From an uncultured Acidobacteriota bacterium (GTDB lineage Bacteria > Acidobacteriota > Blastocatellia > Pyrinomonadales > Pyrinomonadaceae): a DNA stretch of 64,000 nt. Positions 12,445 to 57,400 of this stretch are shown here, piece after piece. The DNA lies in the NCBI GenBank assembly GCA_963848875.1, contig CAWKFJ010000005.1, positions 2,192,305 through 2,256,304 of the forward strand. The letters are read 5' to 3'. Each line of letters begins with the position of its first letter. The first letter of the stretch is position 1. A model generated the notes under the pieces. That model did not search any database, had not been told where the DNA came from, and was given only the letters and a program-made list of their open reading frames with translations. Position numbers and translations under genes: made by a program.

Positions 12445-13617
12445 CTAAGAGAATCTAGAACGAGAAGCCGCCGACATTCCGGGGGCCGCCCCTTCTGAAA
12501 GGGCCATGTTGCGCCGCCGCCAAAAGGGTGACTCCGGCCAGCGAATCTCTTGCGCGTAATAGCCCGCGCGTAGTGCCACGTACTGAGAGAACGTTTCTCT
12601 GGTCTCTGCGAAGAACCTCTGAAGGGCCGACTGGTCTCCGCCCGCAAACTGCTCGTAGGCGTCGGCCAAATCAAGACCGCTTTCCAGGGCCTTGCAAACC
12701 CCCTGGGACGAAAGCGGGTCCCACGCCATCGCGGCGTCCCCGACGGCGGCCCAGCAGTTGCCCCCGAGTTCCCCGGAAATAAAACTCGAAGCGGAGGCGA
12801 CTCTCAACACGCCGGCCGGGAAATTATTCGCCGCCCTCTTCACTCTCTCGGCGGTCGCCGCGGCACTGTCGAGCGCGTCGCGCCAGACGGCTACAGCCGA
12901 AACGCCCGTGACGAAATCCGCGTCCGTCATAAAGATTGCGACGAGCCCGCCCCGAGGCATGGGGGCCGAGTACCACCAGCCCAGCTCCGTGGCCTCTATG
13001 AGCGTCCTCAGGTTGGAGGCGTCGCCGGCCTGCCCGACGTTACAGGCCAACCCCACGAGGCGGTCAAGGACGAGACCGCGGGCGCGGGAGAGGGCGCGGC
13101 GCACGGCCCCGGCGCGCCCCGTGGCATCAATGATGAAGCTTGCGCAGAGTGTCCCGGCCCCGGCGGCCAACCGCACCCGCACCTCGCCAGTGTCTTCCTC
13201 GGCGCAGGACTGCATCCGCGCCCCGCGCAGAATGCGTACGCCCCGCCGCTCCGCTTCGGCGAGGAGAGAGGCGTCGAACCGCTCGCGGTCCAGGCTCCAG
13301 CCGCACCCGTGCGGGTTAAAAAGAAAATCATTCTCATTGGCAGCCCGCGACCCCCAGTAAGAGGTAATCCCTGTCGAGGGCAGATGCCGGCCGGCGGTGA
13401 ACGCCTCCCACACGCCGAGGCGCTGGAGGACGCGGCGGCCATGCGGCGGCAAGGTCTCTCCTAATTTGACGCGCGGCGCGTTCCTGGCGGGCCGGTCCAA
13501 GAGGACGACCGCGAAGCCTTTGTCCGCGAGACGAATTGCGGCGGCGGACCCGGCCGGGCCGCCCCCGACGACGACCACATCACATCTGCCCGTGACGGGC
13601 TCACCGGTGTCGAGCAT
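12445..13617 (-). CDS. FAD-dependent oxidoreductase, LodB/GoxB-like partner of the LodA-family oxidase
   Basis: Trimmed to ATG 13617, 1 nt after the upstream stop at 13619-13621. The N-terminal Rossmann motif is DVVVVGGGPAGSAAAIRLADKGFAVVLLDR. Sitting immediately downstream of a LodA-like gene is the classical lodAB arrangement. Confidence 0.75.
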   Translation of the reverse strand: MLDTGEPVTGRCDVVVVGGGPAGSAAAIRLADKGFAVVLLDRPARNAPRVKLGETLPPHGRRVLQRLGVWEAFTAGRHLPSTGITSYWGSRAANENDFLFNPHGCGWSLDRERFDASLLAEAERRGVRILRGARMQSCAEEDTGEVRVRLAAGAGTLCASFIIDATGRAGAVRRALSRARGLVLDRLVGLACNVGQAGDASNLRTLIEATELGWWYSAPMPRGGLVAIFMTDADFVTGVSAVAVWRDALDSAAATAERVKRAANNFPAGVLRVASASSFISGELGGNCWAAVGDAAMAWDPLSSQGVCKALESGLDLADAYEQFAGGDQSALQRFFAETRETFSQYVALRAGYYAQEIRWPESPFWRRRNMALSEGAAPGMSAASRSRFS

Positions 13618-13618
13618 C

Positions 13619-15122
13619 TTAATGGGGAGGGAGCTTCCGCTCGCGTTCGACGAAGACGGTCGCCCCGGCCTGATTCGTCTCCTGGACGACGACCCCGAGC
13701 TTCCCATAATTTTTGATGAGGCCGCTGTTGCCGCTCGCCCCTGTGATCGGCTCCACCCACCGCTTCATTTGCGGCTCACTACCGACTTTGTTCGGGTCGG
13801 TGAAGACTTTGTCCGGGCGTTGGGCGGGCCACCAAGCGAGCGAGGTGTCAGTTTTGCACGCCATGAAATCGGCCTGCCACGGCACCGCGTTCCCCTCCGT
13901 GAGAATCCCCGGCTTGAGCGCCGACGCGTCTAAGCGAAAAGGTTCGGCGTAGGACTGGGGCGCGGCGATGATAAGCCCGGCCTCTATCCCCGGGAAGAAC
14001 GCGCCGCCGACGCACGCCTGTAGGGAGACGCGGTCGAGCGCTTCGGGGAGCAGCTCCGCGGGGCGCCGGCCCCTGACTGTCGAAATCACCATCGGCCCAC
14101 TGCTGGATGAAACGGTACTGAACGGGCGTCAGCGACAAAGTATCCCCGTCGTTGAAGTCGTCGTTGAGGCGCGGCAGGTGTCCGGCCACGATATCCGGGG
14201 GCGAGCCGGGCCGGCGCAGGGCGGAGAAGAACTTTTGGCGCGTCTGCGCCTCTTGCGCCGGGTCGCCCAGCGCGTCCATCTTGCTGGCGAAGTCGTTCGC
14301 GGAGCCCGGCCCGAACTGTTTGAGGAAAATCTGGTTCGTCCACTGCATCTGCACGAAGCGTTCGAGGATGGGCCGGATGTGGCGCGTGAAGGACGGGCGC
14401 GCGGGGGCGGCGAGGAAACCTCTATCCACGGCCGCCTGAAACGCCACGTCGTACCACGTGACGATGTTCTGAATCCCCGGCGCGTAATCCGGCGGCGCGG
14501 TGACGACCCAGGCGGGCTTCGCCTTATGCACGATCCCGCCCAGGGTCACGCTGGCCTCAACTATTCCGTCCGCGATGTCGTCAAACCAGTCGGGGTTATC
14601 GGCGAAGTTGACTATGCCCGCCGGCGGCTTTGAGGCGGCGTGCCCACGCGCCGGTATGAAGACGAGTCGGCCGTCATTCCCCATTGTGATCTCCCCAAGG
14701 GGCACGGTCTCGCCCCTGAACTTCCCGTCGTTGAAGGCGGCTCGGGCCGCCGGGGTGTTCAAGGTGCGGGGGCTGGGCTTGATGGCTAGGTTGGGATCGT
14801 CGTCCGAGAGCGCGCCGTTGCGCCGCCCGTTGCCGACGAGCATCGGGCCGCACGCCTTGCGGTTGGCGACCGTGACGCGCCACTCGATCGAGGCGCCGCC
14901 GGGCGTCAACTCCTGTGCGTCGGTCAGCTTGTTGTTGGCGTCTCGTTCGCACTGGAAGACCCGGAAGCGGGCCGCCTGTTTCAGGAGATTCCCGTTCTGG
15001 TCTCGGTAGGAAGCCGGCGGGGCCGCGCCCGGCTCGGGCGCAAGGAAGAAGCCGTCTGCCAACTGGCTGTCGCCCACGCGGGCGATGCCAATTGAAGGGT
15101 GAATTTCAAAGGTGGTCGGCAT
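13619..15122 (-). pseudogene. LodA/GoxA-family CTQ quinoprotein amino-acid oxidase, split by a 1-nt frameshift
   Basis: Two overlapping ORFs (13848..15122 and 13619..14092) lie in different frames, and the span of 1504 nt is not divisible by 3. The N-terminus TFEIHPSIGIARVGDS and the segment QYRFIQQWADGDF are in the first frame. ACVGGAFFPGIEAG, VPWQADFMAC and AWWPAQRPD are in the second. All of these are LodA hallmarks as I recall the Marinomonas protein. The tail of the first frame is Arg/Pro-rich nonsense. Confidence 0.75.
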
Positions 15123-15201
15123 GCAGGGTGTCCTTTCTTCGATGAATAATGGGGCGCGCCGGATTTGGAGCGAGCGGCGCGGGCGGCCGCGAGAGACGAT
15201 G

Positions 15202-16665
15202 TCAGCCGCCCTGCAACTCGTCGCCGATGATTTGACGGCGCTCGTCCACGTCAGCCGTTACACTGTCAAGGATTCCGCCGCCGTCCGAGAAATCCGGCTG
15301 CGCCCTCATCCTTTCGATCAGCCTGTCGCTGGCGTTAAGCAACTCCGAGTAGAGCCGCCAGCGATCCACTTCGCGGTCGGGCAGGGCCAGCGTATACGGA
15401 AGCTCAAAGGGGGCTCCGGCCGCAGCTATCGAGCCGGCGACCCCCTTCTTCAGGGGCAGCGAGGTGAGCTTCGACATCAGGAGAGCGATGTTCGACATCT
15501 CGTTGAAGCACCACTCGACCAGGATGCCGCGCCGGGTCGAGAAGTCCGCCTTCAGGCTCAGGGAGTGCGAAAGACTGACGAGCAGCAGGCGATACCGCAC
15601 GTTACATAATTGAGCCCAGAGCCGCGTGGTCGGGTCGGTGATTCGGCCCGACTCGCGCACCCTCTCCTCGGCCAGCTCCTCCGTCGTGAGCCCCCCTTCG
15701 GGCTCAAGCGTGGTGTTCGGATTTAGGGGGACGGGGCGCGAGGGCCGCCAAGCGACGGGCTGCCCGGCCGCCGGCGAGTCGTCCGGGAACTGCTCGTAGA
15801 TTTCGACGAAGCGGTCGAAGTGGGACGGGGCCGGGCCGCCCTCGTTGGCCAGACCTTCGCCCTGCGCCGCGATGCGCGACAGGGCGTCCACGGCGCCCGG
15901 CTGGTCTGTGATCGGCAGAATGAGGAGGTTGCCGGTGTCCCCTCCCCACTCCTCAGCCGTCCCCTGCCGGTCGTCCGTGTCGGTGTGGAAGGCCGCAGGG
16001 TCGAGCGAGCCCACGAGTGATTCCAACTGTTCGTAAACCAGCCCGACTCGATTCACCATCACATCTTCAGACTTGAGACGCCGCAAGGCGTCGGCCACGA
16101 CCTGCTCTTTGCCGGCCGGGATTTGTTCGGGCATTTCGGCGGCGACGTACTTGGCCAAAGAGGTTTTTGTCAGCGGCTCAAGGATGAAGTGGAACGGGTA
16201 GAGGTCTGAGCGGAACGGGAAATCCTCGCGCTCGAAGTTCAGAGGGCCGCCGAGAATCCGCAGGAGGTTCTGGATGGTCAGCAGGTGCGCCATCTCCTCT
16301 TTAGCTATCTGGAATATCTTCCCGAACCACGCGAGCGTCAGTTGGCCTGCGTCGGCGGGGATGTTGGTTCCGGTGAGCTTGGAGGCGACCAGTTCGAGGG
16401 AGAAAGCCGTGTAAAGGTACTGAACCATCAGGGCGTGCTCTATTTCGGCGGCCGACTGTAGCAGGAAGACGGCCTGGTCCAGAGCGGTCAGCTCGCCCGC
16501 CTCCTCGGCGGCTCCCAGGGCGGCGGCCGAGGCCACTTCCGTCATGGGCTTGAACGACGAGCGCCGCTTCGTGAACGAGGGGAGATCGAGAGTTTCGAGC
16601 GGCAGCGTGACGAAACGGCTGGACTGTGTGCGGCGCCCGATTGTTTGAAGGAGTCGTCTGTTCAT
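15202..16665 (-). CDS. Ferritin-like (di-iron four-helix-bundle) domain protein
   Basis: 487 aa. LLQSAAEIEHALMVQYLYTAFSL and IAKEEMAHLLTIQNLL give paired ExxH motifs typical of the Ferritin-like family. Shine-Dalgarno-like GGTGAGAGG precedes the ATG. Confidence 0.7.
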   Translation of the reverse strand: MNRRLLQTIGRRTQSSRFVTLPLETLDLPSFTKRRSSFKPMTEVASAAALGAAEEAGELTALDQAVFLLQSAAEIEHALMVQYLYTAFSLELVASKLTGTNIPADAGQLTLAWFGKIFQIAKEEMAHLLTIQNLLRILGGPLNFEREDFPFRSDLYPFHFILEPLTKTSLAKYVAAEMPEQIPAGKEQVVADALRRLKSEDVMVNRVGLVYEQLESLVGSLDPAAFHTDTDDRQGTAEEWGGDTGNLLILPITDQPGAVDALSRIAAQGEGLANEGGPAPSHFDRFVEIYEQFPDDSPAAGQPVAWRPSRPVPLNPNTTLEPEGGLTTEELAEERVRESGRITDPTTRLWAQLCNVRYRLLLVSLSHSLSLKADFSTRRGILVEWCFNEMSNIALLMSKLTSLPLKKGVAGSIAAAGAPFELPYTLALPDREVDRWRLYSELLNASDRLIERMRAQPDFSDGGGILDSVTADVDERRQIIGDELQGG

Positions 16666-16723
16666 AACCTCTCACCTGAAGCTTGTCATTAGCGAGCTGG
16701 CCGGGGCCCGGCCGGCTCCCGGC

Positions 16724-17830
16724 CTAACCTTCGACGTGCCCGTGTTCATGCCCATCGCCTTCGTGCTCGTGCCCGTGGGCTCCGTGCTCGTGGTCGTCCT
16801 GCTGCTTGTGCGTCACGAACATGTAAGCCAGTATCCCGAACAGCATCGGCCAGGAAAACTTCAGCGGCTCCAGCAGAGGGATAAATCTGGCCGCCAGCCA
16901 GGTCAGCCCCGTCAAGATGAAGAGAAAGGCCATGATGGCGTGCTGGCGGTTGATCAAGCCGCTCGTGCCGTGGTGATGCCCGTAGAAGATGATGCCGGCG
17001 GCGATTAACCCCGCGGGCGGCGGCGCCGCTTCCTGACGACGTTCCTCCAGGCGGACCCCCGTGACCTTATTATCCTTGATTACGGCGCTCTGTAGCGCCG
17101 TCGATAAAGAAAACCTTGCGCCCTGCCGCTCGATCTTCGCGGCTATCGGCTCGAAGATCACTTCGGCGGGCAGTCCCTTCGGCCAGCGGGAGATGATCGA
17201 GTGCTGGTCGCGCAAGACGTAGAACTGTAGGCCGCTCAGGCCGCAGGCGGCCGACACCCTGTCGGGCGTAGTGAAGTCGAAAGAGAGGATGAAAGGTTCG
17301 AGCAGCAGCTTCTGGATTTTAGGCGAGACCCCGGTGGCATCCATCAGTTGCTGGAACGAGAACCCATCGTAGCGTTGGTAATCGTAGTCGGGGTTGAAAG
17401 CCATGGCGTGAATGCCGAAGCGTATCGTCCTGACGAGGTCGCCAAAAGAGAGAAAGCTCGAACGCAAAATCTGGAGGACGAAAAATAGCGGGCTCGGCAA
17501 ATCCCAGGAGAGGGTCTGCAACGGCTGGCGCTTACCGTCTGGCGTCAACAACACAGAACCCTCGGCCTGCTTGAAGACGTTGGCAGACATCACGTCGGAC
17601 CAGCGCAGCAGCCTGTCAAAGTTGAGATAGTTCATCCACCAGCCGTGGACGCCGTGCTCAAGACTCCGCCCGCTCTCTTTGTGGCTGTTGACCTTCCCCC
17701 CTAGCAGTCCCGAGCGCTCAACGACACGGACGGGAACCCCGCTGCGGGTCAATGCCATCGCGGCCGCTAGGCCTGCCGGGCCGGTCCCGACGACGACCAC
17801 CGGGGATGAAGTACCTGTTGGGTCTGCCAT
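16724..17830 (-). CDS. NAD(P)/FAD-binding oxidoreductase N-half fused to a 3-TM segment and a His-rich tail
   Basis: 368 aa. VVVVGTGPAGLAAAMALTRSGVPVRVVERSGLLGGKV is an amine-oxidase/desaturase-type dinucleotide fold. The C-terminus has hydrophobic helices (IIFYGHHHG..., AIMAFLFILTGLTWLAARF, MLFGILAYMFV) followed by HEHGAHGHEHEGDGHEHGHVEG. Confidence 0.7.
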   Translation of the reverse strand: MADPTGTSSPVVVVGTGPAGLAAAMALTRSGVPVRVVERSGLLGGKVNSHKESGRSLEHGVHGWWMNYLNFDRLLRWSDVMSANVFKQAEGSVLLTPDGKRQPLQTLSWDLPSPLFFVLQILRSSFLSFGDLVRTIRFGIHAMAFNPDYDYQRYDGFSFQQLMDATGVSPKIQKLLLEPFILSFDFTTPDRVSAACGLSGLQFYVLRDQHSIISRWPKGLPAEVIFEPIAAKIERQGARFSLSTALQSAVIKDNKVTGVRLEERRQEAAPPPAGLIAAGIIFYGHHHGTSGLINRQHAIMAFLFILTGLTWLAARFIPLLEPLKFSWPMLFGILAYMFVTHKQQDDHEHGAHGHEHEGDGHEHGHVEG

Positions 17831-17912
17831 CTATCCTAATAATTTTCCTCTTCCGTGGAACAGCGTCATGTTGACGGCCGCTCGGCGCGGCCGGGCGCTT
17901 ACCCTCAGCCTC

Positions 17913-19490
17913 CTAGAGGACTTTGGCGAACCTCAGTAAGTCCTCGATGGTGAACTTGTTCTTCTTCCTGCCGGGGAGGGTCGGCTTCCAGTTCTTCGTG
18001 CGCAGGATGGAGTCCTCGCTGCGCCGGATGAGGCCGATGAGCACTTCGGCGACTACGGTGCTGCCGACGGGTCCCAGGCGCTTGCCCTTCCCGTGGTGCG
18101 CCGCCTCGGCCAGGACGTAGTACCAGAGCGGCGTGCGCCTCGAAAAGCCCGAGTCGCGCAGGACGTTTAGCTGGCTCTCGGCGCCGGCCGGCGCGGCGAC
18201 CTTGGCCGCGACCGCTTCGAGCTGCGCAGCCGTCATCGGCGTGAGGCCCAGGGCCCTGGCGACGGCCTGCCCCGTGGGCATCCGCAGCAGGTAGCCGCGC
18301 AGCAAATTCCTCACGGCCAGCATCGCCCCCAGTCCTTCCTCCAACTCCCCCTTGAGAGTTTTCAGCTTGAAGAGCGGATTGGCTAACTGCGTGTCGAAGC
18401 GGCGGGCGCGGTTGCGCATCTTGTCGCCGAAGAAGTTCTCCCATTGGATTATCCAGTTCTCCGGCAGCGTGTCGAAGTCGCCGAGCTGGCCGCTGAGCGC
18501 CGTGAAGACGAAGAGGAGGTCTACGGTGGCCGGCACGGTGTTCGGCTTCCCGCTCGTGTTGAAGTTGAGGTTGAAGTCGTAATCCAGCCGCACCATCGTG
18601 TGGCCGAAGCGGTAGGCCGCCACGGCGAACTCCAGGGGCATGAAGAAGGGCTCAGCCAGCCCGTCGAAGAACTTGTTCTCCTTGAGGATGCCCCTCACGA
18701 TCTTCTTGTCCGCGATGGCCGGCAGGAAGTCATTGAGGACGATGTGCTGGTAGTGCTGCCTGAGCGTCCGGCGCGCCTCGGTGAAGGAGAGCCCGCGGTC
18801 GACCAGCGCGTTGTGCGCCAGCAGGAAGGCCAGGTGAAGCTGCGCGACGATGGTGTTCTCGTCGTTGCGCGGGTCGCCGATGCGCGCGGCGCGGTCTGTC
18901 CTCTCGTCGTTGCTGCGCGGGTCGCGCGAGAGGTCGTTCAGGTCGCCCTTCTTTGGCGGCCGCTTGAAGGGAACCTGGGTGTTGTTGGGGAGGGTTGTGA
19001 CCGCCCCTACCTGCATCTTGTCGCCGACGCGGGGGGCCGGCAGGTCGTAGACGCTGTCCAGGTCCAGGGTCGCCGTGCGCGCGTTCTTCAGCTTCTGGCG
19101 GATGTCGTCGAGCGGGAGCGGGGCGAGCGCCGGGTCGAGCAGCGTCTTCAAATCCGCCGAGGTCATTTCGAGCGTGATGTCATGATCCAGGAACTGCCCG
19201 AAGTAGGTGAAGACCGCGGAGATGTCGGAGTCGCCCTCATCGTCGTTGCCCGCGGCGTCGATCATCGTCTTGCCGAGGCGGGCGAGGTCGGCCACGGTCT
19301 TGCTCGACTCGGGCAGCAGGTTGATCGGGTTGTCTTGCAGCTTGGGGAACAGGAAATCGAAGTCCTTCAAGTCCACGGGCTGTGACGCGGCGAATGCCAG
19401 CGGCACGTTGGCGATGCTCGCGGCCACGCTCTCGCGCGCCTCCTGAAACTGCTGAATGGTGATTGTTTCTCCGTGACGTAAACGTGCCAT
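17913..19490 (-). CDS. Animal-type haem peroxidase family protein
   Basis: 525 aa. The hallmark distal-His motif is FTYFGQFLDHDITLE, with a later AYRFGHTMV (proximal His region). GGAGG lies 9 nt upstream of ATG 19490. No signal peptide. Confidence 0.85.
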   Translation of the reverse strand: MARLRHGETITIQQFQEARESVAASIANVPLAFAASQPVDLKDFDFLFPKLQDNPINLLPESSKTVADLARLGKTMIDAAGNDDEGDSDISAVFTYFGQFLDHDITLEMTSADLKTLLDPALAPLPLDDIRQKLKNARTATLDLDSVYDLPAPRVGDKMQVGAVTTLPNNTQVPFKRPPKKGDLNDLSRDPRSNDERTDRAARIGDPRNDENTIVAQLHLAFLLAHNALVDRGLSFTEARRTLRQHYQHIVLNDFLPAIADKKIVRGILKENKFFDGLAEPFFMPLEFAVAAYRFGHTMVRLDYDFNLNFNTSGKPNTVPATVDLLFVFTALSGQLGDFDTLPENWIIQWENFFGDKMRNRARRFDTQLANPLFKLKTLKGELEEGLGAMLAVRNLLRGYLLRMPTGQAVARALGLTPMTAAQLEAVAAKVAAPAGAESQLNVLRDSGFSRRTPLWYYVLAEAAHHGKGKRLGPVGSTVVAEVLIGLIRRSEDSILRTKNWKPTLPGRKKNKFTIEDLLRFAKVL

Positions 19491-19546
19491 TTAAATTTAC
19501 CTCCGATAAAAAATCCACGTCGCAGCAGTCCGTTACGAAAAGCGGC

Positions 19547-19573
19547 CGAGTCAGGCCGATCCGGCCTGACTCG
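19547..19573 (-). terminator. GC-rich hairpin, possible intrinsic terminator insulating the peroxidase cluster
   Basis: CGAGTCAGGCCG / CGGCCTGACTCG form a 12-bp stem with a 3-nt loop. On the minus strand it is followed by CTTTTCG. Confidence 0.4.
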
Positions 19574-20084
19574 CCGCCTCTTTGACTATTTCAACCAACA
19601 ATCCTACGTTCTGCTCGCTAGCACTCGACCGTATCGGTTTTGCTCAGGAATTTTTTTGAAAGATTAAGAGCACTCCCTCTTGAGAGAAACGCCTGCGTCT
19701 GGCCGAAGCTGCTTCGGATGATATAAGCACGCGGGAGACGGTCAGTCCGCACGGGTTTATATTCCTGGAAACTGACCAGTAGCTTGCGCCAAGCACGCCG
19801 AGAGATTCATTGGCTGCCCTGCTCTGCAAACGTTATATGTGGTTGTGTAAGAGCGTGAGGCCAGCCCGAGGAGTTCCAGCTGGCTCAAATGCGAGAATCA
19901 AACCGAAGAAAACGCGCCGCACTTTATGCCGAACTGTTTATCAAGTCAAGCCATTTCTTCCTACAGGCAGGCCACTTTATAAATTTTGATCTGGCATCCT
20001 TCCAACTTAATACTCTTGGTGACGCAACTACTCTTCTAAAATATATGTCGCGAGAGGGTAAAACGTTTCAAGCATCCCGCGTCC

Positions 20085-20216
20085 GGTCGTGTCTCACAAG
20101 AGATGTTTGACATGGCTCTGGTACGCCTTCGAGCCACGCTCTCGTCAGATCGTCGCCTGGCTTATTGGCGAGCGGACGGACCAAAGTTGTCGGCAAAGAC
20201 ATAGAGTAGGAACTTA
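20085..20216 (+). mobile_element. IS1-family transposase (InsB-like) fragment, a remnant
   Basis: My translation SHKRCLTWLWYAFEPRSRQIVAWLIGERTDQSC matches the InsB pattern [28 protein letters not shown]. It is flanked by stops with no full-length ORF, and it sits in an AT-rich 0.8-kb spacer. Confidence 0.5.
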
Positions 20217-20291
20217 GAAATTCCATCACGGTTAACCATCTTAATCAAACCTTTAGAGAATGAGTTTGTCTATAACGTCGGTAGCGTACTT

Positions 20292-27200: not shown

Positions 27201-27977
27201 AAATTCCAGCGGAGGGCCGTCCAATCGCTCGCCGTGTCGTTGAGCTGGCTGGGAGATATAGAGCTGAGGCTCGGCAAGACGGAATGCGTCTCGTTGTATC
27301 AGGAAGCCGTCGAGCTGTACCGGCGGCTCGGCGAAACGCGCAACGAGGCGAGCGCCGCTTCCAAATTGGGTGACGTCTACAAAGAGCTTCCCGCGCTTCG
27401 CGACCTGGAGCAGGCCGAACACTGGTATCAATATGGCTTGCAACTTCTCGACAGGCGCGATCACTTGGGGCGCAGCAGACGCTTGGCCGATTTGGGGCTG
27501 CTGGCCTACGAGCGTTTCAACGAGGCGCTGAAGGCAGACCGCGCGGAGGAGGAGATGCGGCCCCATTTGGAGGCCGCGGCGCAACACTACGAGAAGGCGC
27601 TGCACGAACTGGGGCTGCTGCCGACCGAAGCCGTCGGTGATCTGGCTGCGGCACATAACCAACTCGGCGTCATTTATGACACGCTGGCCGGCCTCGGCGA
27701 CTTCGCCCGCGCCTTATCGCACTACCAGGAGGCTATACGTTTCTTGGAGCAGCAGGGTAACCTTTACGACGCCGCCTCCGCGCGCTTCAACGTCGCCATC
27801 GCTCTCCACGGAGAAGGGCAGTACGCAAAGGCACTGCTGTACGCGCAGGCAGCGCTGAAAAATTATCAGGCTGACGGGGAGCAAGCGGCCGCCGAGATCG
27901 AACGGACGCGCCAGGCGATTAACCGGATTGAGCAAGACCTGAAAGCGGAAGGAGACAAGACGTATGAGCACGTCTGA
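24261..27977 (+). CDS. CHAT protease - STAND (NB-ARC-like) NTPase - TPR protein (paralog 2)
   Basis: 1238 aa with the same architecture: YHVVHFDGHG, LLLLNACRSAQ, LLHAYAGSGKTTAAAEFARWY, LWVWDNVE and C-terminal TPRs. It is roughly half identical to paralog 1 by eye and carries an extra ~40-aa insertion before the CHAT core. Confidence 0.85.
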   Translation: MPTLRLNQTSEGGGAYLIEVSLEGDNLHRSYSVSGCSFTLPEQDHEDLRWYLEDYLEHPFDPAPIIANRIERRITEIGGELFDSIFRANEDAREVWKEVAGRLDATRVEVVTPIGETTTVPWELLFDPEAGTHLALQCQSFVRVASNVNGRAEGEQLPANNKRSAPDVMPSPANAGGCFSLSESTSAPVRILLIISRPIDSGEVPFRSVASRLLKSLHGRPGFELDVLRPPTFARLNDRLRESQAEGRPYHVVHFDGHGVYEDLQASLLKRPPKKRRGYLLFENVEDHKGEPIHGTLLGRSLAQAGAPLLLLNACRSAQAEASAEPGKGVTENHPRAFGSLAQEVVEAGVPGVVAMRYNVYVVTAARFVADLYTALARGLTLGEAVTQGRKELYRHAERELVYVSRELQDWSVPVVFETKPVAILANAAAEGEESRDDSPPATVTAAPRGEVPAPSDTGFIGRDETLLDLERAFNTEQITLLHAYAGSGKTTAAAEFARWYELTGGVDGPILLTSFERYTPLVRVLDAVERAFSERLKREGVDWLALDDASRRDKALQVLGEVSTLWVWDNVESIAGFPSGVPSEWSAAEQRELAEFLREARHTKAKFLLTSRRDDHEWLHGLAVWHILLPPMPMLERVQMLRSLAEKHGRPPVNILDWLPLLEYTQGNPLTIIVVVGQALRDRLDTKEQLDAFVARLRAGEAAFDDEQSEGRSKSLGASLSYGFAHAFNADELRILALLALFQSYVDVTDLYWMGHPEIGDLPQLRDLSREARISLLNRAANVGLLTACVGSVEGVVYAIHPALPWFFRKLFDEHYPAGVDGEGEDLRLRAMRAYAAAIGATGVYYHKLYYDEGQVDVIDPLAAAEANLHHAWKLSRANGWWTTVISTMQGLDTLYSHTGRRAEWERMVKEVVPDFIEPSTNRPLPGREAEWNKVIEYQVDSAMRARRWAEAEGLQLVRVKWERERVAPLLGVPPGKLDKFQRRAVQSLAVSLSWLGDIELRLGKTECVSLYQEAVELYRRLGETRNEASAASKLGDVYKELPALRDLEQAEHWYQYGLQLLDRRDHLGRSRRLADLGLLAYERFNEALKADRAEEEMRPHLEAAAQHYEKALHELGLLPTEAVGDLAAAHNQLGVIYDTLAGLGDFARALSHYQEAIRFLEQQGNLYDAASARFNVAIALHGEGQYAKALLYAQAALKNYQADGEQAAAEIERTRQAINRIEQDLKAEGDKTYEHV

Positions 27978-28896
27978 CTGGTTTGATGATCTGCCCGTGA
28001 TCGGCCAACTGTCGCCGGTGGAGGCGGCGGCGAAGCTGCGACAACTGGGCGAGGACGAAACCGCCGACTCGATCGAGGCGGCGCAGCGCGATATGCAGGC
28101 GTCGGCACACAGCTTCGGCCTGAGCGAACTGTTGGGGTTCGGTGAAAGGCCTTGGCAGCACACTGCGCACGCCTTCGGCTACTTGGCCCCAGCCAAGCCC
28201 GGTAACGACCTGCTGCCCATCCGGCACGCGGGCAACATCGACGGCGACGCTAGCCTCAAAAACTCGCGGGTGAAGATTGCGCTCAATCGGCTGCGCGTGG
28301 CGGATTATCCCGGCGGGGGGATGCACCATGTGCTCTTTGATTTCTACGCGCAGAACCAACTCCCGGGAGAGGTGGAGCACCTGCACTTCAACGCCGCCTT
28401 CCGCGTGCTCGAAGGCCAACAGGCGGCCATCATCAACTACCCGATATTCGTCGGGCTGAACGTCGGCGGCGAAGGCGTGGCCTTCAAGTGTCTCGTGGTC
28501 AACGTGAAGAATGAACAGGACGAGGCGTTCCTCGGTTTCCTGGAGTCCGAAGTGTTTCAGTCGGGATTAAAACTGGCGATGACCGCGCAGCCCGCGATCG
28601 CGCCCCTCTCGCAGATGGCGCTTGGGCTGACTAAATCCATCGCCAAGCGTAACCGAAATGTGCCAGTACAGGAGTTCTCAATGGGACTCGACTTTACGTC
28701 AAACGCCTTAGGCGCCCGACTCGCCGAGGGTGACTACATAGCCGTTCAGATTCCAATGAAGATGCGAACCATTTGGGATTGGGACGAGTGGGTCTACAAC
28801 CCGAAAAGCGGCGAGATCGTGAACATTGACGACCATAGCCAGCTAATTCCATACAATTACCTTGTCTTTAGCATTAACCGCTACGAGGGGGCGTAG
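27964..28896 (+). CDS. Hypothetical 310-aa protein translationally coupled to CHAT-STAND paralog 2
   Basis: Its ATG lies inside the last codons of the upstream gene (14-nt overlap, tATGAGCACGTCTGA). No TM helix, signal peptide or catalytic motif that I recognise. Acidic helical N-terminus followed by a beta-rich body. Confidence 0.65.
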   Translation: MSTSDWFDDLPVIGQLSPVEAAAKLRQLGEDETADSIEAAQRDMQASAHSFGLSELLGFGERPWQHTAHAFGYLAPAKPGNDLLPIRHAGNIDGDASLKNSRVKIALNRLRVADYPGGGMHHVLFDFYAQNQLPGEVEHLHFNAAFRVLEGQQAAIINYPIFVGLNVGGEGVAFKCLVVNVKNEQDEAFLGFLESEVFQSGLKLAMTAQPAIAPLSQMALGLTKSIAKRNRNVPVQEFSMGLDFTSNALGARLAEGDYIAVQIPMKMRTIWDWDEWVYNPKSGEIVNIDDHSQLIPYNYLVFSINRYEGA

Positions 28897-29088
28897 TCGT
28901 TGGCTAAAGGTCGTGCTGACACTGAGGGGCGGCGGGCTCACGGATAGAGAGGCCGCCGCGCACGCTCGCTGCTAGGTACTTGCATCTTCCGGCGGGAGCC
29001 CGTCGAAGCGGGAGCCAAGGCCGGGAGTGCTCCGACCCGCCTTAATGAAAAATGCTCATTACAGAGGTAAGTGCGTAGGCACAGAAAT

Positions 29089-29123
29089 GCCTGTAAACCG
29101 AGATTAAGTATCAGTTTACAGGC
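29089..29123 (-). terminator. Hairpin downstream of pilC
   Basis: GCCTGTAAAC / GTTTACAGGC form a 10-bp stem with a 15-nt loop, 68 nt after the pilC stop. On the minus strand it is followed by ATTTCTGT. Confidence 0.35.
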
Positions 29124-29190
29124 ATCGGAAATTATGGTTGCCCCAAATTGCCAATTACAGTTGTCCCGTAGGAACATCCCTCCAAGGACA

Positions 29191-51472: not shown

Positions 51473-54400
51473 TTAGCGTCGCCCCTCAACTTCAGATTGG
51501 ATCGGGTCCATCGGGTTCGGGCCGCGCCATTCAAAAACACGCTCCCCAAACAAAGTATAGCCGTGGAGTACCCTATAGCGGTGGAGCGAGAAAGTCCCGA
51601 ACTGCCTGGTTTGGACAATGATATTAGGCGGGCGCGCACTCACAGCGCCTGCTTTAGCTCCAGCGTTCGCTCTCCTCTCCCTCTCACGAATTTTATCGCA
51701 TTCGGCAGCGGCCTTATAAAACGTATTAACCGGCCCGCGTTCAAGTCTTTCTTCTGCCTTCGTCGATGTATATATACTTACGGCAGCGCCTACTACTGCG
51801 CCTGCGATTCCACCTGTTGCATAGCCAGCCGCGGCTTGCACAAGGGCATCCTCCACTTTGTCTCCGGTGGTCGGGAAATCATTAGCCTTACCCTGTAGTT
51901 CGGCTCCAAGTGCGTGTAGCGCTTTGGAGCGGCATTCCTCATAATCTTCCTGTTTTGGGGGGGCAGTCCCACCACCCTCGCGGGGCTTCTCGTTGTCATA
52001 CCCGTAAAATGGAATGCTGGCGCCAAAGCAAACGTATCGATATGTCAAGGGGTCGGCGGGCTCAGCGCCCGGAAATCCCCAGAGCCCACATATCTGCTTC
52101 ATTAGCCCGCTCGGGTCTATGAAATTAACAGGGTCATTCTGCGTGTACGAGTAGCGGTTAAAACTCTGCGGGTCCGAGAGGACGTAGCTGCCGTCGTAGG
52201 GGTCGGGCTGCGCGAACCTCGACGCCTTACTCTCGTAGCGCCTGAACATCGCGTCGTCGCCGCCGTCCGAGTCCCGCTCGTAGGTGGTGTAGCGGCGCGG
52301 CTGCTGGCTCTGGAATTCACTCCTGCCGGTCTCCCCGCCCCACGGGTCCAGGTCAACCGTGCTGACCACCGCGCCCGTGCTGTCGGTCAGCCGCTGGCTC
52401 TTCGTCACAGGGTCCTGATGCACCCAGAGGACGCGGTCGGGCTTGCTGGCGTCCTCGCGCCCCTCCTGCACGGCCAGCAACTGCTCGCCCAGGTAGACGT
52501 ACCCCCGCGTCATCTCCCCGGCGTAAGGCGAACTGCCGCCGATCTCGGCGACGACCTTGCCGCCCAGGACGCTGCTCCGCAGGTAGAAGGTCGTCGTCAA
52601 CCCGTCCTCCGTCTTCTTGACCCGCAGCCCGTCGCCGTCATAAGCCTGCGCCAGGTCAGTCCCGCCAGCAGTGATCTGCTGCCCGGTCGCGTCGTAGGTA
52701 TAGGTGATTGCGCCGTCACTCAGGAGGTTTCCGGCCGCGTCGTAGGACATGGCCGAACCTGTCGCCGGGTTGACGGCAGGGCGGTTGTTGGCCCCGTAGG
52801 GTGGGTGGGTGACGTACTGCGCGCCGGGCACTCCCCAGCCGTCGCGATCCGTCATGTTGCCAAACTTGTCGTAAGTATAGGTCGCCGAATAGGGGCCGTC
52901 AAGAGTCCCCCAGGAGGCTCCGTTGCCGGCGTGCGCGTTGGCCTCCGTGCCCGTGTGCGCCTTAATCAGCCGGCCCACGTGGTCGTACTCGTATGAGCGG
53001 TCGAGGGTCGCGTCGTACAGGTTGTCGGCGAAGGCCACCTTCCCGGTCTTCTCCTGGAGCCCAGGCGTAGAGTATTTGTAATCCCACCCGAAGGCCGCGC
53101 CCGCCACGTCCCACTTCGTCAGCCGCAGGTCCGCGTCATATTCCAAAGCCAGCGAGTTGCCCGTCGAGTAGTTGATCTGCTTGGGCGCGCCGAAGGCCCT
53201 GTACGTGATACCCGTGACATAGCTCGTCACCCCGGCGTAGCCAGAGCCGGTCACGGAGGTGGGCTTGCCCGTCTTATCCCGGACGTAGGTGACCTGCACG
53301 CTGGAGCCGAAGGAGGCGACTGGCCCAGAAGCCGTCACCCTGGTCACGCCTCCAGACTTGTTGTAGAGATAAGCGAGTTTGTAGTCACCCGTCAGCCCCG
53401 TGAAGGTGCGCGACTCCCAGTCCATCTGTGACACGGAGTTGTAATGATAATTGGCCGTGCCCTGCCCGTCCGTCATGGCGGTGCGGTTGCCGGCCGAGTC
53501 GTAGGTGTAGGTGACGTTCGGCGTGGCTTCCAGGCCCACCACGTTTGCCGGCACACCGTAGGTCACGCTCGTCGGCTGGCGTCGATAGTTGTAGGCGAAG
53601 GTGATAGTCGCCCCGCGCGCGTCCGTCACCTTCTGCACCGTGTCGTCCTTGTTGTAGGCGTAGGTTGAAGCCCCTTGCTCAGGCGTCGTGCGCGTCAGCA
53701 GCCGCCCGTGCCCGTCGTAGCTAAAGGTCCTCATCTGCCCTGCCTGATTGACCCCGACGAGATGATCCAGCGCATCGTAGGTGTAGGCGGTCGTCGAGTA
53801 GACCGCCCCGCCGAAGGTGTACTCCTCGACCGTCTTGAGCCTGCCGAGAGAGTCTTTCTTGAAGACCTTCTTGCGCCCGCGTTCATCCGTACTGGTCAGT
53901 TGCTCGCCGCCGGCGCACCCGCACCCGCCGTAAGAGTTCGTCCGGGTCGTGCCGTCCACGTGGGTCGTCACCAGCGGGCGGCCCTGCCAGTCGTAACTCT
54001 GAAGCGTATACTTCCAGCCCGCCGCCGCGTCGTCCCCGGCCGCGGCCCACGCGCTTGTCATCTCGGTCTGATTCGACCGCTTCACGGCCCTGCCCATTGC
54101 ATCGTAGACGACGTACTGCCCGCTGTAGAGGCCGGCGCTGCCAGGGTGCTCGGCCGAGGCCCCGCGCACGCGCCCCGCCCCGTCCAGCAGTTCGGTTGTA
54201 TAGACTTCGGCCGTGCTGTGGACGGTCTGGTACTGCTGGACCAGCGTGTTACTGGTCGGGTAGACCCAGCGCGTGTAGGCACCGTTGGCGGCGTTAGTCG
54301 CCCTCACGAGTCTACTGGCCGTGTCGTACAGATAGTTCACGTCCGCGAAGGTGACCAAGTCACCTGTCGTGCCGCCCGTATTGTTGACCGGGCGGGTCGT

Positions 54401-57400
54401 CTTCATCACCACGCCGGTGTCGTAGTTGTACTGCGTGGTCGTGGCGAAGTCGTCGTCATTCGCCTGCTCGGCTGTCGTCAGCGGGGGCGTGACTTTGGTC
54501 GGGTAGGCGCGCGTGGTGACGCCGACGGTTGTGGAGAAAGAGTCGGCGAAGTCAACATTAGTCGTGTGGCCGAGCGGGTCCCTGGACAGGACGACGGACC
54601 CGGCGCTGTCGTAGCCGATATTGGACTCGACCAGCTTGGCGCTGTTGGCGGAGTCGCTAGCATCCCAGCGCCTGACGCTCGTCAGGTTGCCGCGGCCGCC
54701 GTAGGTCGTCTGCCCGTCGAAGGCCGTGTCGTGGTTCGTGAGCGCCACCCCCGCATCCTTGAACCACCCGGCCTCGTCGTACTGGTAGTCCACCTTCGAG
54801 ACGATCTTGGCCGGGTCGGTTGTCACGTCGCTGTAGACGAACCTGGAGAGGACGAGCCCGATGATGCGGGCGTTCCTGTAGGGGGTCGTGAGGTTGTAGG
54901 TAGCGTGCGTGCGCCGCTTGGGAGTCTCGGTCGTCCCCACGACCTCGTACTCGTCCACGTCCGTCACCAGGCTGAAGGCGCTCACCCCCGTGTAAGTGTA
55001 CTTTTCGCGCCGCCCGTTGCCCGCCGAGTCAAAGACGGTGTGCATCGTGGGGCGCGGGTTCTTCTGGTAAGTAAGAGTCGTCGAGTCCTGCGTCCACTCG
55101 GTCTCTGTCCACTTCACCTTCACCTTGGTGTTGTCTGAGTCGAGCGGGTTGGGGTCGTCCCACACTTCCGTCGCGGTCGTCAGCCCTTTCATCCAGGTGG
55201 CGGACGTGTCGAAGAACTCTTTGTAGATCGTGCCGTCGGGGGTGGTGACATGGCTCCACGCAGGCTGCTCGCCGCCCGCGCTGTTCGGGTCCACGCTGTA
55301 GGTGGTGACGGCCTCCTCGGCCGCCGTGGGCGTGCCGTCCGTGTCCCCGTTCCAGTTCTGCGCCCACTCGCGGTGCTCGGTAAAACGCGGGCAGTCGGTC
55401 TGCGGGGCCGAGGCCGTGAGCGGCAGGTTGTAGGAGATGTAGGAGAGCAGATGATTGTCCTGCGCGTGGCGGCGGATCTTCCAGACCTGGCCCCAGGAGG
55501 TGTAGTCGAAGTTGTAGCGCGTCCCGTCGCCGAGGCCGATCTGCGTCAGGACGGGGATCGAGCCCTGCGGCCCCAGGTAGCTCAGGCCAGACCACCATGT
55601 GTTGATCGCCAGGTTGCCGTAGCCGAACGTGGCCCAGGTGTAGACTGTCCCGCCCCGGTTCTGTGTGATGGAGCTGAGCCGTCCGTCCACTGGGTCGTAG
55701 TTGAAGTTGACGGTGCGCGCGAGCGCGTCAACCATCTGGCTGACTTTCCCGTTCGCGTAGTTGATGGAGATGTAGTTGCCGTTGCGGTCCTGCACCCGCG
55801 TGCAGTTCAGCCCGTAGCCCCCGACCGTGAAGCCGAACTGGTACTGCGTGCCGTCCGGGGTCCTGACGACGTGGGTCGTTGCCGCACTATAAGTCACGAC
55901 CAACTGGACGTAGGAACCGTCCTGCGACTCGTAGGTGGCGCCCGTGGCGGTCGCGCTGATCTTCTTGAGGTCAACGCGCCGCCCCGAAGGCAGCACGAGC
56001 AGGTAGGAGCCGATGGCGTCGTCCTCGTTGACGTACTCGGCCTCCAAGGTGGGCAGGCCGAGGCGGAAGCCGGGTGTGGGGTTCCCGCGGTCGGCGTTGA
56101 ACATCATGGCTGTGCCCTGCTTCGTCCAGACCAGCGAGTTGTAAGAGATGCCGATGTTGAGGTCCATGCCGGCGCGACCCGGAAGGCTGACCAATGTCAG
56201 GCCCCAGCCGAAGTTGCGCGAGCCCAGGTCAACGCCACGCTCGCCCGTCTCGTTCTGCGGACGGGTGCGAGCCGTGGCGAAGTAGGGGTCGGAGCCGGAG
56301 GCCGGGGGCGGGTCGCCCTCGTTCGGGTCACAATCCGGGCAGAGGTCGGCGCGGATGGCCGCTGGGGCCACAGGGTCCGTAGACTCTATGTTACGCGCCG
56401 CATCTAAGTCGGGCAGGTTAGGGCCTGGGGTGCCCTCAGACGTGCCGGAAGTCCCGCCGCCCGGCGTCGGCGTCGGCGTCGGTGTCGGCTCAGGCTCAGG
56501 GTCAAGCATAGCTGCCAGTGCGCCCGCCGCATTGACCACACCGCCCGCAGCAATCTTGCCGTTGAGTTCCGCCACAGGGCGCGCGCCGGCCACGACCGCG
56601 GCCCGCGTCCCGGAGGCAGAAAGCCACCACCGCTGTGTCTTAATCAGTCCCACCACGCCCGTCACCATCGGCGTCGAAGCAGAGGTGCCGCTGACGGTCG
56701 TGTAGCCGCCGCCCATCGTCGTCGTCAGAATGTCCACGCCCGGCGCGGCGACGGTGACGTGCGTCGCGCCGTAGTTCGACCACGAGGCGAGATGGTCGGA
56801 GCTGTCGGTCGCGGCGACGGAGAGCTGATTGGAGAGACCGAAGGAAGAGGGGTAATAGGGAGTAGCATCTATGTCCCTCCCGCTGTTGCCGGCAGAAGAG
56901 ACGACCACCACGCCCCTCGTCCCCGCGCGCTGGATGGCGTCCTTCAACGCCAGAGAGTCCTCGTCCGTGCCCCAGGAGCAGTTAATGACCTGCGCGCCGT
57001 GATCCACGGCGTAGTCGATGGCCTCGACGGCGTCCGCCACGCTCCCCGTCCCTGTGTTGTCGAGCACCCGCAGACTCATCAAAGCTGCCCGCCACATCAC
57101 GCCGGTTGTCCCGACTCCGTTGTTGCCCTGCGCGGCGATGATGCCGGCGACGATGGTCCCGTGCCCCTGCTCGTCAATGATATTCCCGCCGCCGGTTATC
57201 CAGTCCCAGCCATGCAAGTCATCTACAAGGCCGTTGTTGTCGTTGTCGCCGCCGTCAGCATTTTCCGCCGCGTTCGTCCACTGGTTGTTCTGTAGGTCCG
57301 GGTGCGTGAAATCGACGCCGCTGTCGATGACGGCGACGACGGTCGTCGGCGCTCCGGTGGTGGTCTCCCAGGCTTGTGCGACGCTTATGTCAGAGTTAGA

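Follow-up and report, generated by a model that had tools for sequence, protein, structure and literature searches.

An open reading frame (ORF) in the 64,000-nucleotide stretch of Acidobacteriota DNA analysed here (the window; Pyrinomonadaceae, contig CAWKFJ010000005.1) encodes a 310-residue protein, named p310 here, whose gene begins inside the end of a gene for a CHAT-STAND-TPR protease-sensor. We hold it to be an even call that p310 is the protease-licensed effector of an NLR-like (STAND) abortive-infection module, its cleavage and its toxicity being putative, because the two genes are coupled, the p310 family depends on neighbouring proteases, p310 and its partner diverge together, the slot that p310 occupies is variable, the regions of the protein evolve differently and no catalytic signature is present. 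We rate p310 as a new effector family inside a known kind of system; no paper describing the family was found in the literature searched, although it may have been described earlier.

p310 and the CHAT-STAND-TPR protein are made together, from overlapping reading frames. The first-pass annotation of this DNA had placed the p310 ATG 14 nucleotides (nt) within the end of the 1238-residue gene, which the coordinates confirm (27964-27977, with the CHAT-STAND ORF closing on a TGA at 27975-27977), and an AGGAG motif stands ahead of the start. A protein 94% identical to p310 (P0001) is encoded with the identical 14-nt overlap, and the equivalent junction at other loci varies between an overlap of 36 nt and a gap of about 150 nt, the commonest arrangement being a 5-nt gap. 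Because homologs begin at the same position in the alignment, the start codon is supported, and the ORF is not a chance one: it has 1150 homologous clusters (90% identity level, expect value E ≤ 1e-3), the best 120 of which are 63-94% identical to p310 and of equal length (294-330 residues). At 50% identity an exhaustive HMMER scan gave 640 family clusters, 305 of them below 1e-30, and when one genome per species was scanned, members turned up in Chloroflexota, Acidobacteriota, Planctomycetota, many Cyanobacteria, Bacteroidota, Actinomycetota, Desulfobacterota, Pseudomonadota and some archaea. A phage origin was rejected, there being no PHROG match, no relative in IMG/VR (by pattern scan) and no tblastn match in 50,697 phage records. 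Translational coupling from an overlapping frame is also typical of toxin-antitoxin pairs, and would suit p310 as a protease regulator, that is, a stoichiometric pseudo-substrate or safety catch that silences CHAT, with killing left to the protease itself, which would cleave proteins of the cell as type IV Thoeris and PCaspase do; we judge this role improbable, for reasons that lie in the partners, in the CHAT-STAND relatives and in the pattern of conservation.

Across genomes, members of the p310 family rely on a protease encoded next door, which can be of almost any class. Among 52 non-redundant genome loci that extend 4 kb or more to either side, a CHAT or Peptidase_C14 (C14) ORF lay within 1 kb of the p310 homolog at 36 and at a distance of 1-3 kb at another two, and none was seen at the remaining 14; 45 of the 49 cases in the full set of adjacent pairs were on the strand of p310. 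Such ORFs accounted for 37 of 104 immediate neighbours; among the other ORFs within 7 kb, which served as an internal control, they were 5 of 396 (odds ratio 43, p 6e-23). All four long contigs with close homologs carry a CHAT-AAA_16-TPR gene next to p310, with the order reversed in one, and elsewhere the partner may be a TPR-CHAT protein without an NTPase, a trypsin fused to EAD8 or EAD1 or, in cyanobacteria, a 320-residue Peptidase_C14 followed by an EAD10-NACHT-HEAT gene. Bacterial gasdermins are said to show a similar spread of partner protease classes. The flanks of related loci hold toxin-antitoxin, methylase, integrase and transposase genes, and some of the loci that lack a caspase-like neighbour adjoin NACHT, TIR or HEAT genes. 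TIR-domain genes lie just downstream of p310 at the P0001 locus (L091, 2140-4314) and at a cyanobacterial locus without a caspase (L072, 8992-9834).

The list of partners extends to subtilisin-like proteases. On the Rhizobium leguminosarum plasmid NZ_CP018236 (L092, 1418-5796), an ATPase and an S8 peptidase match the PADLOC models IetA (4e-125) and IetS (1.7e-244), and a distant p310 homolog, annotated as hypothetical, begins 13 nt after IetS. The Undibacterium plasmid pUKW01 (L093, 3419-7836) has the equivalent gene order according to its record annotation (ATP-binding protein, S8 family peptidase), with peptidase and p310 genes that overlap by 4 nt and a p310 copy that is apparently frameshifted. 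Identity of the IetAS-linked homologs stands at 34%, and neither IetA nor IetS is encoded in the window. These two loci suggest an unrecognised three-gene form of IetAS: as IetAS is defined as two genes, p310 would be an unrecognised third in a subset of these systems.

p310 also follows its partner in evolution. Divergence of p310 and of the adjacent CHAT-STAND protein is correlated (r 0.73, permutation p 0.0005), and p310 is better conserved than its partner (mean identities of 0.64 and 0.49, respectively); at two loci (L018 and L154) one p310 gene lies between two CHAT-STAND genes, which parallels the two paralogs of the window. The first-pass annotation had cast p310 as a candidate substrate or effector of the CHAT protease, and the adjacency statistics and co-divergence support it in this, whereas a tie to CHAT-STAND in particular did not hold up: far from always standing beside CHAT-STAND genes, homologs adjoin TPR-CHAT, C14, trypsin and IetS proteases, and 14 of the 52 loci have no caspase-like neighbour. 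Homologs are common outside CHAT neighbourhoods only insofar as other protease classes take the place of CHAT, and this replacement strengthens the view of p310 as a substrate. It also speaks against the safety-catch role, since one would not look for an inhibitor tailored to one active site next to proteases of four unrelated classes.

The dependence is one-way, p310 occurring mostly with a protease and the CHAT-STAND sensor-protease not needing p310. A metagenome scan anchored on the alignment of the CHAT-STAND family yielded 54 loci with enough downstream sequence, and since only 10 of these carry p310, always downstream and on the same strand, the sensor-protease does not depend on it; paralog 1 in the window, without a p310 gene to itself, fits this pattern. 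At other loci the same coupled slot holds a SIR2_2 gene (1.7e-17), a gene for a small transmembrane protein, one whose Nuc_deoxyrib_tr/TIR-like match is weak and misses Pfam's threshold (E 0.0025), a 219-residue family, or nothing. Members of the last family (219-223 residues, without a Pfam match) recur in the slot at L102 (7651-8310), L115, L119 (5676-6344) and L161; a relationship to p310 was rejected (hhalign probability 0.3%), and this may be a second unknown family of protease partners. Two loci combine candidates: at L096 (7770-9146) a CHAT-STAND gene is followed by SIR2_2 and then by p310, and at L087 (3034-5951) a p310-CHAT fusion is followed by a gene for a 214-residue protein with a metallo-beta-lactamase (MBL) fold, an established class of nucleases activated by proteases. 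Some systems may therefore carry two effectors. For p310 as a regulator of the protease, it counts that most CHAT-STAND relatives, like paralog 1, are without p310, so that the protease may be the real effector, that MBL or SIR2 is on hand as another effector at some loci, and that p310 itself carries no catalytic or pore-former signature; if p310 were needed as a restraint, however, the 80% of relatives that lack it would be self-toxic.

The protein belongs to no named family. Searches of Pfam, NCBIfam, PADLOC and PHROGs returned no match at E ≤ 1, and PDB sequences none by phmmer or by profile, so that the description of p310 as unassignable in the first-pass annotation stands. That annotation had further described an acidic helical N-terminus followed by a beta-rich body, and both are seen: residues 1-46 have an isoelectric point of 4.05 (10 D/E against 3 K/R), and AlphaFold2 predicts helices, a linker and then 11 strands. 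The final model was built on a 148-sequence alignment and reached a mean predicted local distance difference test (pLDDT) score of 89.3 and a predicted template modelling (pTM) score of 0.89; it supersedes a first model from 48 close sequences (pLDDT 66). In the first part of the beta body, the predicted strands span residues 68-74, 102-112, 120-133, 136-149, 159-166 and 172-181 (pLDDT >90). A helical insert of about 50 residues splits the 11-strand body, with the consensus DEAFLxFLESDVFKxGLKLxxTxQPAIAPxSxxAxGLTKxIAxRxRNVPVQ, and the C-terminus is a conserved strand ending in SRYEG, within a few residues of which the aligned members stop without a tail. There is no hydrophobic stretch at the N-terminus, and the sole 19-residue window to reach a Kyte-Doolittle value of 1.6 (residues 161-179) falls in a predicted beta-hairpin; this crude hydropathy calculation bears out the reported lack of transmembrane segments and signal peptide, and we rejected the window's p310 as an integral membrane or secreted protein. 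Its single cysteine is residue 176, and none is N-terminal.

Structure prediction followed by Foldseek, as proposed earlier, thus gave a confident model, and this has no significant relative in the PDB: among the matches listed the best E was 0.012, and probabilities were at most 0.89 and template modelling (TM) scores at most 0.29 over the query. C2 domains (PI3K, CAR4, Dock180 DHR-1, Itch, CC2D1B and AIDA) topped this list, all of them non-significant. None of the 50 listed PDB matches of either p310 model was a gasdermin (PDB entries 7N50, 7N51 and 7N52). Among models of viral proteins, the first, low-confidence p310 model had a sole significant match, the uncharacterised 323-residue protein A0A1V0SF49 of Hokovirus HKV1 in BFVD (E 2e-6, TM 0.40). 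An enzymatic role was rejected: across 148 sequences, the most distant at 33% identity, the positions that hardly vary are mostly glycine, proline, aromatic or aliphatic and include no catalytic set, and the histidines seen in the close clade are not shared by the whole family, in agreement with the earlier failure to recognise a catalytic motif. A refolding of the insert into an amphipathic beta-hairpin in the manner of MACPF proteins or gasdermins is not favoured by its hydrophobic moments, which suit ordinary, unremarkable amphipathic helices better.

When homologs were grouped by partner type and the CHAT-STAND-linked group was compared with the C14-linked group, identity between groups was 0.52 in the first part of the beta body and 0.49 in the helical insert, as opposed to 0.21 in the N-terminal hairpin and 0.13 in the linker, the least conserved region. 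Within groups, hairpin and linker reach identities of 0.3-0.57 (0.50 for the hairpin in the CHAT-STAND group). This comparison, in which partner type is confounded with phylogeny, suggests that hairpin and linker vary with the type of partner while body and insert stay constant. At position 61, near the end of the linker (E61-R62-P-W in the window's p310), D or E is found in 15 of 20 CHAT-STAND-linked members and D in 10 of 14 that are linked to C14. We infer from this pattern that the hairpin is a pro-domain or protease-docking element and the linker the region of cleavage, with E61 as candidate P1 residue, and we propose the insert as a functional surface. Because all members stop right after the last strand, a C-terminal cut of the kind seen in gasdermins or Pepco is unlikely. 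For a regulator of the protease the pattern runs the wrong way, the part conserved across partners being the body and not the protease-facing N-terminal region.

Fusions and variants hint at the cell envelope. The complete p310 module, hairpin included, is found behind a phospholipase C (PLC), an LCAT-type lipase, a LysM protein with a VgrG3-like peptidoglycan hydrolase and a C25-like peptidase, and in P0233 it stands in front of a CHAT domain; all of these fusions have a trypsin, CHAT or STAND gene no more than about 2 kb away, in most cases directly adjacent. A signal peptide or lipobox precedes the hairpin in 19 of 149 representatives of 50%-identity clusters (about 13%, including P0152, P0170, P0183, P0242, P0261 and P0269), which means that a branch of the family is exported; the 120 closest relatives of p310 include none with a signal peptide. 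Orphan, signal-peptide-bearing and enzyme-fused forms (lipase, PLC or peptidoglycan hydrolase) would not be expected of a protease regulator. Two other readings were weighed. p310 could be an adaptor or targeting subunit, itself non-toxic, whose C2-like body brings the protease or a fused enzyme to a membrane or other site, or presents a signal to the sensor. C2 domains are fused to enzymes in eukaryotic PLC and cPLA2, and the weak C2-like fold matches, the fusions to lipid- and wall-degrading enzymes, the fusion of P0233 to CHAT itself and the binding motif suggested by P0124, a 448-residue member with four to five tandem hairpin motifs (AAxKxRxxGxxxxAxxIE) before a normal body, would all suit such a subunit. 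We nevertheless give it little chance: the common two-gene form has no cargo besides the protease, p310 is the component that evolves most slowly, unlike immune sensors and adaptors, which usually change quickly, and the Foldseek matches are non-significant (E>0.01, TM<0.3). Alternatively, the family could be a secreted or envelope toxin or a lipid-binding module with an interbacterial or non-immune role, to which the cytoplasmic, protease-linked copy is secondary or incidental. The signal-peptide clade, fusions with VgrG3-like, LysM, PLC and LRR domains, the existence of orphans and a member that adjoins a TcdB/SpvB-type toxin gene (P0175) agree with this, but we consider it very unlikely, as none of the 120 closest relatives has a signal peptide, adjacency and co-divergence with the partner go far beyond chance, and even the enzyme fusions lie beside or near proteases or STAND genes.

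Under the protease-licensed effector reading, triggering of the TPR sensor of either CHAT-STAND paralog would lead the NTPase to oligomerise and the CHAT domain to become active. The protease would then cut p310 in the linker at about residues 47-63, possibly after E61 and before R-P-W, and removal of the hairpin would free the conserved beta body. More weakly inferred is the last step, in which the freed C2-like beta-sandwich with its insert would bind and damage the envelope or membrane, so that the infected cell is killed or arrested; the suggestion of action at the envelope comes from the fusions with lipase, PLC and peptidoglycan hydrolase, from the clade of secreted members and from the weak resemblance to C2 domains. 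A wider formulation, which we advance tentatively and with some doubt, has p310 as a widespread, undescribed family of death effectors, of a fold for which no relative has been solved, in which removal of an N-terminal pro-domain would unleash attack on the envelope. The family would be an analogue of gasdermins of independent origin, used interchangeably by caspase-like, trypsin-like and subtilisin-like proteases (three-gene IetAS and cyanobacterial orthocaspase-NACHT systems included), and its secreted branch would be an extracellular toxin module.

Several observations weigh against an effector released by cleavage. The amphipathicity of the insert is unremarkable in hydrophobic-moment profiles, and Foldseek found no significant resemblance between the confident model and any pore-former in the PDB. 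At the 90% cluster level, each enzyme fusion is represented by a single metagenomic sequence, although one of these fusions is present on three contigs. The candidate acidic P1 residue is not universal, and the regional pattern can be no more than suggestive where phylogeny confounds the grouping by partner. A secreted clade exists, and at about ten loci p310 is a true orphan surrounded by housekeeping genes, which together imply that a protease is not always needed. The tandem hairpins of P0124 imply a repeatable unit, which a binding module fits better than a simple plug. Lastly, most CHAT-STAND relatives work without p310 (10 of 54 carry one), and some loci already hold another effector (MBL at L087, SIR2 at L096).

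By analogy, the logic of p310 is that of the known protease-licensed effector modules bacterial gasdermin (bGSDM), EACC1, Pepco and Csx30; with these and MBL, p310 shares a non-random adjacency to a protease, here one with an intact H258/C315 dyad. Like p310, the effectors of bGSDM-protease systems (Johnson et al., 2022, bioRxiv 10.1101/2021.06.07.447441) are non-enzymatic proteins of about 300 residues that adjoin, and often overlap, the gene of a protease on which they depend, the partner being caspase-like, CHAT, trypsin-like or subtilisin-like and fused to repeat or NLR-like sensor domains, and activation proceeding, presumably, by a single cut. Unlike them, p310 matches no Pfam family, Gasdermin included, finds no gasdermin among the listed Foldseek matches in the PDB, has neither a C-terminal inhibitory tail nor an N-terminal cysteine, carries its variable, presumably cleavable element at the N-terminus, and is far more conserved in sequence. 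EACC1 offers a precedent: Evans et al. (2025, PMC12642450) show that it becomes active when an autoinhibitory fragment at its N-terminus is removed by the caspase-like Avs12. EACC1 and Pepco resemble p310 as small non-enzymatic partners of Avs- or STAND-fused proteases, the "constant" part beside variable sensors, but at about 13 kDa and 117 residues, respectively, against 34 kDa for p310, they have another predicted architecture, and p310 has no Pfam match; by size, sequence and fold, it falls outside the ten protease-associated effector families listed by Evans et al. (2025).

In Craspase, the TPR-CHAT protease Csx29 cuts the co-encoded Csx30 at one site, and some p310 genes likewise adjoin a TPR-CHAT gene without an NTPase; p310, however, has no CRISPR context and is unrelated to Csx30, and its signal would come from protein sensing by the STAND NTPase and not from RNA guidance. 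We rejected p310 as a gasdermin, Csx30, EACC1, Pepco or CATASP, as there is no Pfam, PADLOC or NCBIfam match and no match in fold; the earlier impression that it looks like neither a gasdermin (by sequence and fold) nor Csx30 was sound. C2 domains, too, are fused to lipid-acting enzymes, and the fold matches are weak (E ≥ 0.012, TM ≤ 0.29); a C2 domain is about half as large as the p310 body, which also has the 50-residue helical insert. The partner in the window has the effector(CHAT)-NTPase-TPR layout of Avs and NLR-like STAND proteins with intact motifs, and it matched no PADLOC Avs model, only generic TPR models and, weakly, SAVED_CHAT.

Paralog 2, the partner, matches Pfam CHAT (4e-22), AAA_16 (5.6e-5) and TPR_12 (2.4e-11). 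Its predicted catalytic residues are H258 (nt 25032) and C315 (nt 25203), within the motifs HFDGHG (254-259) and NACRS (313-317), followed by Walker A (GSGKT at residue 487, nt 25719) and Walker B (WDNVE at residue 569); the His/Cys dyad and both Walker motifs are intact in paralog 1 as well. By tblastn (E ≤ 10), the window contains no second or decayed p310 after paralog 1, and p310 is present in a single copy. Downstream of paralog 1, about 800 nt (19491-20291) hold no convincing ORF and have a G+C content of 0.54-0.57, against about 0.62; no remnant of p310 was detected in this interval, where a partner gene would be expected.

Table 1. Coordinates of p310, its subregions and its CHAT-STAND partners in the window.
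Feature	Position	Strand	Basis and remarks
p310 gene	27964..28896	+	ORF and translation; unnamed family without Pfam, NCBIfam or PADLOC model
Shine-Dalgarno-like AGGAG	27950..27954	+	Read from the sequence; 9 nt before the p310 ATG, within the 3' end of the CHAT-STAND gene
14-nt overlap of p310 start and CHAT-STAND stop	27964..27977	+	Translational-coupling arrangement
N-terminal acidic helical hairpin, residues 8-46	27985..28101	+	AlphaFold2 helices 18-27 and 31-46, pLDDT >90
Linker, residues 47-63	28102..28152	+	pLDDT 55-71; variable, indel-rich; ends in semi-conserved D/E-(K/R/Q)-P-W
Beta body part 1, residues 64-183	28153..28512	+	Long antiparallel strands; most conserved region
Helical insert, residues 184-232	28513..28659	+	AlphaFold2 helices 184-193, 196-199 and 212-227; pLDDT 64-84
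Beta body part 2, residues 233-310	28660..28893	+	AlphaFold2 strands 233-243, 256-263, 276-279, 284-287 and 299-306
GC-rich inverted repeat, 11-nt arms, 9-nt loop	28929..28959	+	33 nt past the p310 stop; without T-run
CHAT-STAND-TPR protease-sensor, paralog 2, 1238 residues	24261..27977	+	Coupled upstream partner of p310
CHAT-STAND-TPR paralog 1, 1210 residues	20292..23924	-	47% identical to paralog 2; divergent transcription; no own p310

The inverted repeat behind p310 may mark the end of the transcription unit, and it is absent from the output of the terminator scan. A second inverted repeat of 15 nt (29087-29125, 93% complementary, 9-nt loop) lies between p310 and a convergent T2SSF/PilC-like gene. 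Distinctive signals or composition around p310 were otherwise rejected, the promoter and terminator scan and the base composition being unremarkable. The gene cluster is flanked by type IV pilus and type II secretion system genes on one side and by an oxidase cluster on the other; the latter (12445-19490, reverse strand) encodes a halogenase-like flavoprotein, a LodA_N-type lysine oxidase, a ferritin-like protein, an amine oxidase-like flavoprotein and an animal-haem-peroxidase-like protein, and this run of oxidative enzymes may be a quinone-cofactor oxidase or natural-product cluster. Further along, a very long ORF of 2137 residues occupies 51473-57886 on the reverse strand.

Protease-gated death effectors (gasdermins, EACC1, Pepco and MBL nucleases) are increasingly recognised as a main output of NLR-like immunity in bacteria and as parallels to animal pyroptosis. 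If our reading of p310 is right, it would add another effector to these, from a family of 640 clusters at 50% identity that spans many phyla and some archaea, has no solved structural relative and serves four protease classes. With only two genes, its operon is compact and lends itself to direct tests. The one-way dependence provides a useful rule for finding further partners, for which the 219-residue family that occupies the same slot is a candidate. We know of no established mechanism for IetAS, and to our knowledge the substrates of cyanobacterial orthocaspases are largely unknown; p310 could be the missing effector for a subset of the former and for the latter.

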